Source: Antedon mediterranea (Eukaryota; Animalia; Echinodermata). From it: a stretch of 64,000 bases of DNA. Of this stretch, positions 16,974-19,900 are shown piece by piece; positions within the stretch are counted from its first letter, which is position 1, and each line of letters opens with the position of its first letter. A program made the position numbers and the translations under genes. Location: the NCBI RefSeq assembly GCF_964355755.1, contig NC_092671.1, positions 15,429,742 to 15,493,741 on the forward strand, given 5' to 3'. The notes under the pieces are model-generated. The model was not told the DNA's origin and ran no database searches. It saw only the letters and a list, made by a program, of their open reading frames with translations.

Positions 16974-19900
16974 TTATTTCTTGCCACTTTTGGCCTTTCC
17001 TGACTTGCCCTTGTCCTTTCCTTTGCCCTTGGCTGTCTTAGCAGCTGGTTTCTTGCCCTTTCCCTCAGGCTGACTTATCTGAAATTAAACAAAGATTATG
17101 ATTAATCAAAGAAAGAAAATAGGCCTAGCATTGGTTGTATACCCCATGGATACTAAAGCCTGTTTTTCTGTCGACGTTATTCGACGCTATCGTCGTTGAT
17201 CTTTAACAGTTCAACGACGATCGTTTGAAAACAATCAATTTGAAATGACAACAATAGCGAGTACCCTTTCCTGTAAATCGTTAACATTTCAATGTTTACG
17301 TAAAAGATCGCTGATTATTGTTAACGATAGCGTCGACGTCGACAGGAAAACAGGCTTAAGGCCTATTAAAAAGCTGTACTTACTCCCAACTTCTTGTTCT
17401 TCAACTGCTGTTTCTTTTCAGTATTACGTATTTCAAGCAGCTTGGCAACACGTTTCTGAGTCTGAGCGTATGGGTTCAGTTTGAACATGACACGGACATT
17501 CTTCAACGGGTTCTTCTTGTGCACCTTGCGCTTGTTGGCGTTGCGGTTGGCTGGTCTCAACTGTTTCTTAATCTCGTCACTTCTCAGCAGACGGGTTAAA
17601 TCAGTGTTCACCATTTTTCCCATTGGAAGACTAAAGAAAATAATCAATTAGGTACCCTTGTAACCACTTGACATATAGTAACCACTTGATATATAGTAAC
17701 TCAACAACACTACTTTAATAAAGAAACATGCGAGATAAGAAATATACAGAGATCAGTACTTCTTGGTAAAAATCATGGTTATTCATAAACACGGACCAGA
17801 AGTTGAATCATCATATACTCTGCATATCTGTATTTTTTTAAACGTTAAAATTGCTTGGGTCTTGAAAAATCATTGTCATTTGCTATGAAATTTTGAGCTA
17901 TGTTTAAATACTGAATCAAATGTAGTGATTACATTAACACCAAACAAGAGGGAGATTACAAAATAGTCTTTGCGTTTGTTATCTTGTGAAAACTGCAAGT
18001 AGGATTTGAACCAAAAACCATGGGTAAAAAGGTATGGCAACTTACTTGTAGTTGGTCTTTTCAGTTGAAGATTTCTTGTATGTACCATAGATTTCATTCA
18101 ACTTGCGGAAAGCACTCTCAGTCCAAATACAGAACCGGCCAACATGACCACCAGGAGCAATCTTCATCAGATTCAACTTGTTTACATTCAAGAGAGTAAT
18201 ACCTGTACAGATTTAAATTTTTTTTATAATACATAAATCAGCCAACTTTTTTTCAAAATAAAGTACTGCACTTCAAAATATCATTTATGAAAAAAATAGT
18301 TTGACAGAAGTCAGTACTTCTTGGTAAAAATCATTGTTATTCATAAACACGGACCAGAAGTTGAATCATCATAAACTGTCAAATACAAAATAAAATGTCT
18401 TTATTCTTTACTCTAAACTTCACTCCCGAACCAGGAAGGCCATTTACTTACCAGGAATGTTACGGAATGACCTTGTGATGCCATTGTCTTGGGCGTAGAC
18501 AACCAGTGGACCTTGACGTTGAACATGACGACGGTTTCTAAGTTTACCTTTGCCGGCACGCATTCTCCTAGACTTGTAAACCTTGAAAATTAAGAATTTA
18601 CTATGGTTACAATCTATAAAAGTGTTATTTTATTAAAGTACATTTGGTGACTGGTGGTTGAACTTGAACCAATCCCAGACATTTTACATCATGTTATCTA
18701 ATGCTCTGTCTATACAAAAAAAGTGATGTGCCCAAATATGGTAGTGATATGACATCATCATGTCCATATATGGGGACATCAAGTTTGATAGTGTAGAGAG
18801 AGCTTAATTCACTATTATCTAAATATAACCTCAATGGTTTAAAAAAACAGAGATCAGTACTTCTTGGTAAAAATCATTGTTATTCATAAACACGGACCAG
18901 AAGTTGAATCATCATCTACTCTGTATAAAACTCTGAAATGTATCATTAGGTTTACCTTTTTGATGTCATCCCAAGCCTTGAATCTTTTCAAGAAGACTAC
19001 AGCTTCTTTAGTTTTTTTGTACTCTTGAACTTTGTCGCTTACAACAAGAGGTACTTCAATGGTTTGCTCAATGCGATGACCTGAGTGAAAAATTAGCAAC
19101 AATTAACAAAACACTAGCTTATAGCATATGCTAGAAGTATTGTAAACAAGGAGAATTGGAATCAATCATTTATTACTTGTACAGAAATCAGTACTTCTTG
19201 GTAAAAATCATTGTTATTCATAAACACGGACCAGAAGTTGAATCATCATAAACTCTGTATAAATACTGTAATGAAATAATATCTTATTTTTCACATTCCT
19301 AGATTCTCCAAACAATGATGTCAAATATCTTACCCTTTGACATGATCAAAGCTGGGATAGCGGTGGCCGCTAATGCAGAGCACATGGCAAATCGTTTCTG
19401 GTTGGTGTTGGTGCGATGGTGCCAGCGACGCCATGTCTTAGTCGGTGCAAACATACGCCCACCACGACACATGTTTCCGAATGCACCCTGCCCAGATCTG
19501 TGCGTTCCACCACCTCGAACACGTGGGATTCTCGCAACAGCACGACCAGTACCCCAAGATTCAGCACTGGTCTGATGTCCTATAAAAAAACAATAACAAA
19601 TATTGCAGTCATTATTTTGGAGGCCATGATTAATTCATTTTAGAAAAGAGTAGAATTTCAATTAAAATATCTATTCTAAAACAAAACTAATCAAAATTGT
19701 TTTTTTTACTAGATCAGAACTTCCTGAATAACGTCACATGAAATCAGCAACACGGACCAGAAGTTGGCTCATCATTTCTATTCCATAATATTAATGTACA
19801 ATATATAGCATTAAGAGATTAAAAACTTGGTGTTACCTGCTTTGACACTGACAGCATAAGCCTGACGGGTATTCTTACGCATGTTACTGCTAACAAAGTT

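Follow-up and report, generated by a model that had tools for sequence, protein, structure and literature searches.

The pairing of the box C/D small nucleolar RNA (snoRNA) U18 with the gene for ribosomal protein uL4 (RPL4) was described in vertebrates three decades ago. Whether the same pairing extends to an echinoderm is the question raised by a 64,000-nucleotide (nt) stretch of the genome of the crinoid Antedon mediterranea (NCBI RefSeq assembly GCF_964355755.1, contig NC_092671.1, positions 15,429,742 to 15,493,741 of the forward strand; hereafter the window), in which each of five consecutive introns of a uL4 gene holds one short element on the transcribed strand. A sequence-only reading of the window had taken these elements to be five U18-like C/D snoRNAs, and the places it gave, the covariance-model matches, the splice sites and the reading frame all agree with that proposal. 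The five elements are very probably functional members of the U18/SNORD18 family of box C/D snoRNAs, each encoded within an intron.

Family membership follows from the Rfam SNORD18 covariance model (RF00093, clan CL00047; gathering score 41 bits). When run on the whole window, the model matched all five minus-strand elements above the gathering score (41.7–51.0 bits, with E-values of 1e-6 to 2e-4 for the whole window; Table 1), so that the assignment of the earlier reading came through the search intact. A 15-mer, CTTCTGGTCCGTGTT, is common to all copies and has five exact occurrences on the minus strand; when as many as three mismatches are tolerated, chance predicts 0.62 matches, and none of 100 shuffles reached six.

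The elements share a layout that runs from a C box through a (C)AACUUCUGGUCCGUGUU(U/G) segment to an internal NUGA box; after a short spacer come a weak C' box, a further segment of 12–14 nt and the D box. The C box is AUGAUGA and the D box CUGA in all five. The copies fall into two types: copy 1 (type A) has CUGA at D' and a UGUGAC-like C' box, and copies 2–5 (type B) have AUGA at D', separated by 5 nt from a C' box of AUGAUUU, the C' boxes being weak, as is common for this motif. The segment ACCAAGAAGUA is specific to type B. In minimum-free-energy (MFE) folds each copy is closed by a terminal stem of 4–7 base pairs (bp), which is UAGA/UCUA in copy 1 and UACAGAG/UUCUGUA in copy 2, and which in copy 4 is retained with a different sequence (UGACAG/CUGUCA as opposed to CAGAG/CUCUG). 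The true terminal stems of copies 2–5 (CAGAG/CUCUG type, 6–7 bp) sit 1–3 nt outside the stem modelled by Rfam, and each RNA is therefore about 75–80 nt long.

The stretch of large subunit (LSU) rRNA towards which the guide points is among the most conserved in eukaryotes. Eukaryotic rDNA contigs were retrieved with a 30-nt LSU pattern, and among them Rfam confirmed three complete units spanning the small subunit (SSU), 5.8S and LSU genes. The 12-nt guide upstream of D' (UGGUCCGUGUUU, with U or G as its last base) finds one perfect Watson–Crick match in each of these units (3/3), at 5'-AAACACGGACCA-3', some 640–650 nt into the LSU. The proposal that the guide is antisense to a universal LSU sequence is thus upheld, the 12-bp match being unique in all three rRNAs. 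The guide had also been described as one conserved sequence, which holds except for its final position, since that of copy 1 (UGGUCCGUGUUG) ends in G and not in U. Under the box+5 rule, the fifth guide pair from D' falls on the A of GAAAC-A-CGG, which is A649 of yeast 25S and A1313 of human 28S rRNA. The yeast target sequence given by DNAzyme arms, GCCCGUCUUGAAAC-A649-CGGACCAAGGAGUC (PMC3938493), places A649 at box+5 and therefore identifies this position as the U18 site. U18 is listed as the guide for human Am1313, Saccharomyces cerevisiae Am647(649) and Arabidopsis thaliana Am660, and has been traced to the last eukaryotic common ancestor (PMC3511168). In the 28S rRNA of this crinoid, the predicted target context is 5'-GAAACACGGACCA-3'.

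On this basis the elements would be expected to act by the mechanism that is standard for the U18 family. Each copy would be transcribed within the uL4 pre-mRNA and, once its intron has been spliced out, freed by debranching and trimming with exonucleases, its ends being protected by the C/D kink-turn that the terminal stem holds together. The RNA would then assemble with Snu13/15.5K, Nop56, Nop58 and fibrillarin, and the 12 nt 5' of D' would pair with LSU rRNA at AAACACGGACCA, allowing fibrillarin to 2'-O-methylate the A opposite the fifth guide nucleotide from D'. Judged from sequence, expression of the five copies, assembly of the small nucleolar ribonucleoprotein (snoRNP) and methylation of the site can thus be predicted for this animal. 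The segment 5' of box D would meanwhile pair in cis, filling an otherwise vacant D-guide position.

The AUGA of type B had been interpreted as degeneration of D' in four copies, a view that does not survive comparison with other members of the family. In yeast, the U18 consensus at D' is itself AUGA, and this box is active (PMC5389607). Of the U18 copies gathered from uL4 genes, both from Lineus and two of the four from zebrafish carry AUGA; UUGA occurs in Saccoglossus, Ptychodera, Strongylocentrotus purpuratus, Haliotis and two Lingula copies, and CUGA in the remaining Lingula copy and in two zebrafish copies. The AUGA type is, in addition, conserved between two crinoid genera, Antedon and Anneissia. 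Across the sequences compared, NUGA at D' is the family norm and not a crinoid degeneration.

The segment next to box D calls for a different explanation from the one first given to it. It had been read as a second guide, and its resemblance to the first had been considered unusual. Between box C and the guide, each snoRNA carries the reverse complement of this segment (UACCAAGAAGUA in type B), and the two form an internal helix that pairs ACUUC(U)GGU with ACC(A)AGAAGU (ACUUCUGGU with ACC(A)AGAAGU in copy 2). The type B version of this helix has 9 bp and a single bulged A, and it takes in the first three nucleotides of the guide. It is present in the MFE fold of every copy in the window, and RNAalifold recovers it unaided. 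In an alignment of 18 copies from six species, a small and related set, the strands AACUUC/GAAGUU are paired in 92% of cells, versus 30–50% when one strand is slid by 1–3 columns. Compensatory changes are seen at two of the six helix pairs, namely A-U to U-A in all three Lingula copies (AUCUUC/GAAGAU) and A-U to C-G in Ptychodera copy 2 (CACUUC/GAAGUG), and the covariation score of 0.123 (0.021 in shuffles) was not reached in any of 500 shuffles. The evidence for the helix is good but not overwhelming. The self-similarity of the two supposed guides is accordingly that of a helix conserved across phyla.

That the 12–14 nt 5' of box D form a true second guide, directing methylation of another site in rRNA, small nuclear RNA or mRNA, seems very unlikely, even though the segment occupies the exact D-guide position and is conserved between both crinoids. 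Its sequence co-varies with the 5' segment of the same RNA in Lingula and Ptychodera, which argues for pairing in cis. Moreover, UACCAAGAAGUA has no match with up to one mismatch in the three complete rDNA units, and a 10-nt version of the element has no site common to the three; a second rRNA guide was rejected for these three eukaryotic units, a sample outside which the crinoid's own rRNA lies. It is likely instead that U18 uses its D' guide only, with the unused D-guide position held by the cis helix. In Haliotis and Lineus the box D-proximal element differs (AACCACUU and AACCAUCU, respectively). The Lineus element AACCAUCU is complementary to LSU AGAUGGUGA with one mismatch in all three rDNA units, and the element might be a real guide in these two lineages.

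Several observations weigh against the view that all five elements are functional U18 snoRNAs with an internal helix. Four of the five copies, those of type B, exceed the gathering score by a mere 0.7–3.2 bits, and the type B C' box AUGAUUU lacks its second GA. Fold z-scores are unremarkable, at +0.11 for copy 1 and between -0.5 and -2.45 for copies 2–5 (-2.45 in copy 5). Such values are usual for C/D snoRNAs and, with the weak exception of copy 5, not significant, and stability is therefore not used here as support. Complementarity to the target was measured on the LSU rRNA of other eukaryotes, the 28S of this crinoid lying outside the window. As for the helix, covariation rests on two pairs in few related sequences; the four core pairs (CUUC/GAAG) are invariant and so are uninformative on covariation either way, and the 5' ACUUC may extend pairing to rRNA GGAGU, which might explain part of its conservation.

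The low type B scores (41.7–44.2 bits against a gathering score of 41), together with the AUGA at D' and the weak C' box, would also fit a scenario in which type A, with its CUGA, is the sole working copy and the introns merely carry along four type B duplicates that are decaying or inert. This is highly improbable in the light of what selection has retained. The type B copies in introns 5 and 6 are found in the same introns of Anneissia japonica, where they are 66/81 (81%, copy 4) and 71/82 (87%, copy 5) identical, whereas the flanking intron sequence is effectively unalignable (37–39% identity in intron 5 and 25–39% in intron 6) and the adjoining exons are 82–85% identical. The snoRNAs are thus islands of conservation as strong as coding sequence, a pattern that, as read from the alignments, is that of purifying selection. 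All copies keep the C and D boxes, the 12-nt guide and the terminal stem, the last with a new sequence in copy 4, and the AUGA D' is, as noted above, active in yeast and found in zebrafish and Lineus.

The reading of all five copies as functional U18 snoRNAs leaves the relationship between the two types to be accounted for. From C box to D box, type A of the window is 84% identical to type A of Anneissia and the type B copies are 89–92% identical to the two Anneissia type B copies, whereas A and B are 70–74% identical to each other. Both types are present in both crinoids, and therefore they are older than the split between the two. Within the window the type B copies are 98–100% identical, and so are closer to each other than to their orthologues, which would point to gene conversion or to recent spread or duplication within the gene. 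Occupancy differs between the genera: in the window, A lies in intron 2 and B in introns 3–6, and in Anneissia intron 2 is empty, A lies in intron 3, the short intron 4 is empty and B lies in introns 5 and 6. It is an unlikely proposition that A and B represent a maintained division of labour and not simple redundancy, with the internal helix acting as a cis pseudo-substrate duplex in the empty D-guide site. If this were true, type B could also modify the neighbouring C (it has the yeast-like U-AUGA context) and type A the A only, and the helix might control how accessible the guide is at its 5' end, where it covers three nucleotides in type B.

All five snoRNAs lie in sense orientation within introns 2–6 of uL4, so the idea that a vertebrate snoRNA–host relationship is preserved in an invertebrate is borne out. 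How far this relationship extends can be judged from the comparison loci in Table 1. In addition, chicken has three U18 copies in RPL4 introns 2, 5 and 6 (PMC2653536), human has three U18 isoforms plus U16 (PMC3035437), and lamprey uL4 holds SNORD16 and a single sub-threshold U18-like element. On this distribution, the association of U18 with uL4 is of bilaterian age or older; for cnidarians, sponges, arthropods and nematodes there were no named uL4 matches among the best 120 of the protein search. Occupied introns, copy number and co-resident snoRNAs vary between lineages. The description of the crinoid copies as a locally amplified five-copy family was overstated, given that 3–8 U18 copies per uL4 gene are usual (PMC2653536; PMC3035437); five is at the high end of the range and not an outlier.

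Which snoRNAs reside in uL4 introns changes from lineage to lineage. In S. purpuratus, three SNORD57 copies fill uL4 introns that hold U18 in other deuterostomes. In Haliotis, six of the eight sub-threshold U18-like copies lie within one 4.4-kb interval between coding exons, and the copies lack the deuterostome internal helix and carry AACCACUU near box D.

In Xenopus, the Bozzoni laboratory reportedly found that U16 and U18 are released from L1 transcripts by endonucleolytic cleavage of the pre-mRNA, and proposed that intron processing tunes output of the gene. By extension, the crinoid elements might mainly serve their host, with snoRNA–intron processing competing with splicing and so tuning uL4 output. 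Many animals do carry snoRNAs in nearly every uL4 intron, with occupants that differ (SNORD57 three times over in S. purpuratus, SNORD16 and SNORA35 in vertebrates), which suggests that uL4 introns are a favoured site as such. Against this, selection preserves the box motifs and the guide towards rRNA and not features of the intron, and the introns that bear U18 differ between lineages. We judge a mainly host-serving role unlikely; it is in any case compatible with the U18 function set out above and no replacement for it.

The host gene itself is well defined (Table 1). Its seven coding exons, 2–8, are set by GT-AG splice sites and an unbroken frame of 395 codons, and in a protein search the product was 94% identical to uL4 of Anneissia japonica, 77% to that of S. 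purpuratus and 73–76% to those of hemichordates, with exon DNA about 82–88% identical between the window and Anneissia. Anneissia uL4 begins MAVAAARPL, and exon 1 therefore supplies the ATG alone. An alternative exon 1 at 20570 ('CTTTCAAAATGGCC') was rejected: it lacks a splice donor, and homology to Anneissia points to 22046–22048. Introns 1 and 7 contain no SNORD16, SNORD57 or H/ACA snoRNA, a permissive Rfam scan of 15000–22000 (E up to 1) having returned the five SNORD18 matches only. The minus strand at 21590–22060 carries a tandem duplication of about 239 bp that comprises the end of exon 1 (GAAATCAAAATG/GTAAAG) and the start of intron 1 and leaves a second ATG-GT donor at 21809–21805. 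In intron 1, two terminal inverted repeats (~20110–20165 and 21355–21410), spaced about 1.2 kb from each other, suggest a transposon insertion, and intron 7 has a palindromic element resembling a miniature inverted-repeat transposable element (MITE) at 17160–17345 (GCCTGTTTTCCTGTCGACG...CGTCGACAGAAAAACAGGC).

The gene order Zwilch – uL4 – dynein heavy chain is the same in Anneissia. Zwilch stands head-to-head with uL4 in the window, and likewise in Anneissia, Saccoglossus, Ptychodera and zebrafish; the conservation of this gene pair is deep, and the neighbourhood, like the residence of U18 in uL4, dates from the bilaterian ancestor at the latest. A low-complexity tract rich in CTAG and GGCCTAG (22560–22900) is situated between Zwilch and the promoter of uL4. 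Downstream of uL4, in the dynein heavy chain gene region, the plus strand at 14039–14148 carries a sequence resembling 5S rRNA, which scores 55.8 bits (gathering score 38). This sequence has lost part of helix III and contains numerous non-standard pairs, and probably represents a pseudogene of 5S or a repeat derived from it.

Table 1. Features of the window and of the uL4 loci used for comparison (positions are those of the locus named; SNORD18 counts refer to copies within uL4)
Feature	Locus	Positions	Strand	Details
U18/SNORD18 copy 1 (type A), uL4 intron 2	Window	19707–19782	-	RF00093 51.0 bits at 19710–19780
U18 copy 2 (type B), intron 3	Window	19181–19257	-	RF00093 43.8 bits at 19184–19254
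U18 copy 3 (type B), intron 4	Window	18847–18923	-	RF00093 41.7 bits at 18850–18920
U18 copy 4 (type B), intron 5	Window	18303–18381	-	RF00093 42.1 bits at 18307–18377
U18 copy 5 (type B), intron 6	Window	17744–17824	-	RF00093 44.2 bits at 17749–17819
uL4/RPL4, 8 exons	Window	16974–22110	-	5' end near 22110 approximate
uL4 exon 1, ends with ATG	Window	22048–22046	-	By homology to the Anneissia start AAAATG/GT
uL4 coding exons 2–8	Window	20014–19837, 19579–19334, 19080–18956, 18581–18452, 18202–18046, 17630–17384, 17078–16974 (stop)	-	GT-AG sites
Zwilch	Window	~23157–28914		
Zwilch; uL4 snoRNAs	Anneissia (L001)	Zwilch 1–8164		2 SNORD18 above threshold, 1 at 39.7 bits; others: none seen
uL4 snoRNAs	S. 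purpuratus (L002)	U18 7678–7747; SNORD57 9155–9228, 9971–10043, 11560–11632		1 SNORD18 above threshold; SNORD57 x3 (48.8–54.3 bits)
Zwilch; uL4 snoRNAs	Saccoglossus (L003)	Zwilch 1–5656		3 SNORD18 above threshold; others: none seen
uL4 snoRNAs	Lingula (L004)			3 SNORD18 above threshold; others: none seen
Zwilch; uL4 snoRNAs	Ptychodera (L005)	Zwilch 1–2553		3 SNORD18 above threshold; others: none seen
uL4 snoRNAs	Haliotis (L006)	U18-like copies 4642–11325		0 SNORD18 above threshold, 8 by guide-motif scan; others: none seen
uL4 snoRNAs	Lineus (L007)			1 SNORD18 above threshold, 2 by guide motif; others: none seen
Zwilch; uL4 snoRNAs	Zebrafish (L008)	Zwilch 1–922		4 SNORD18 above threshold; SNORD16 x2, SNORA35

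The closest known system is vertebrate U18, with SNORD18A–C in RPL4 (L1 in Xenopus), which shares with the crinoid elements the RF00093 family, the host gene and the presence of several copies in separate introns. The D' guide core, GGUCCGUGUU, and the predicted target A (human 28S Am1313) are also the same, and uL4 has Zwilch as its neighbour in zebrafish as in the crinoid. The differences lie in copy number (five in the crinoid, compared with three in human, three in chicken and four in zebrafish), in the absence from crinoid uL4 of the zebrafish co-residents SNORD16 and SNORA35, and in the internal helix, which in the crinoid is longer than in vertebrates (9 bp, interrupted by a 1-nt bulge and including 3 nt of the guide). 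The AUGA at D' of four crinoid copies is shared with two of the zebrafish copies.

Yeast U18 (snR18) has the same guide and target (25S A649) and the same UAUGA context at D' as type B (PMC5389607). Its host, in contrast to the crinoid, is an intron of EFB1 (PMC3938493), and the pairing of U18 with uL4 is therefore not universal. In yeast U18, moreover, D' and C' are separated by an accessory guide, and C' is one nucleotide longer (AUGAGUGA); together with UAUGA, these features lead to methylation of two adjacent nucleotides, the second being C650 (PMC5389607). The crinoid copies, by contrast, leave only 5 nt from D' to C', the C' of type B being AUGAUUU.

The U18 copies of other invertebrates (Saccoglossus, Ptychodera, S. 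purpuratus, Lingula, Lineus and Haliotis) resemble those of the crinoid in host, guide and multi-copy arrangement. The internal helix is common to the crinoid, the other deuterostomes and Lingula; the other invertebrates differ from the crinoid in the introns occupied, in a D' that is mostly UUGA and, for Haliotis and Lineus, in the box D-proximal element. A search of the literature that could be queried turned up no paper that explicitly describes U18 in the uL4 gene of an echinoderm or any other invertebrate. The relationship between U18 and uL4 may already be tabulated in snOPY, whose example locus is RPL4/SNORD18A (PMC4015994).

The crinoid arrangement is real, under selection and shared across bilaterians, and is thus ordinary rather than new. 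What is mildly new is the bilaterian depth of the host relationship, the split into A and B types with homogenisation within the genome, and the conserved internal helix. The helix, lying in an unused D-guide position, is a small structural point that could be useful for modelling eukaryotic C/D snoRNPs. Otherwise the locus has little import beyond annotation, as a clean crinoid example of a snoRNA–host pairing known from vertebrates; it adds a data point on the positional stability, as against mobility, of intronic snoRNAs, among which deep conservation of the host is considered rare (PMC3511168).

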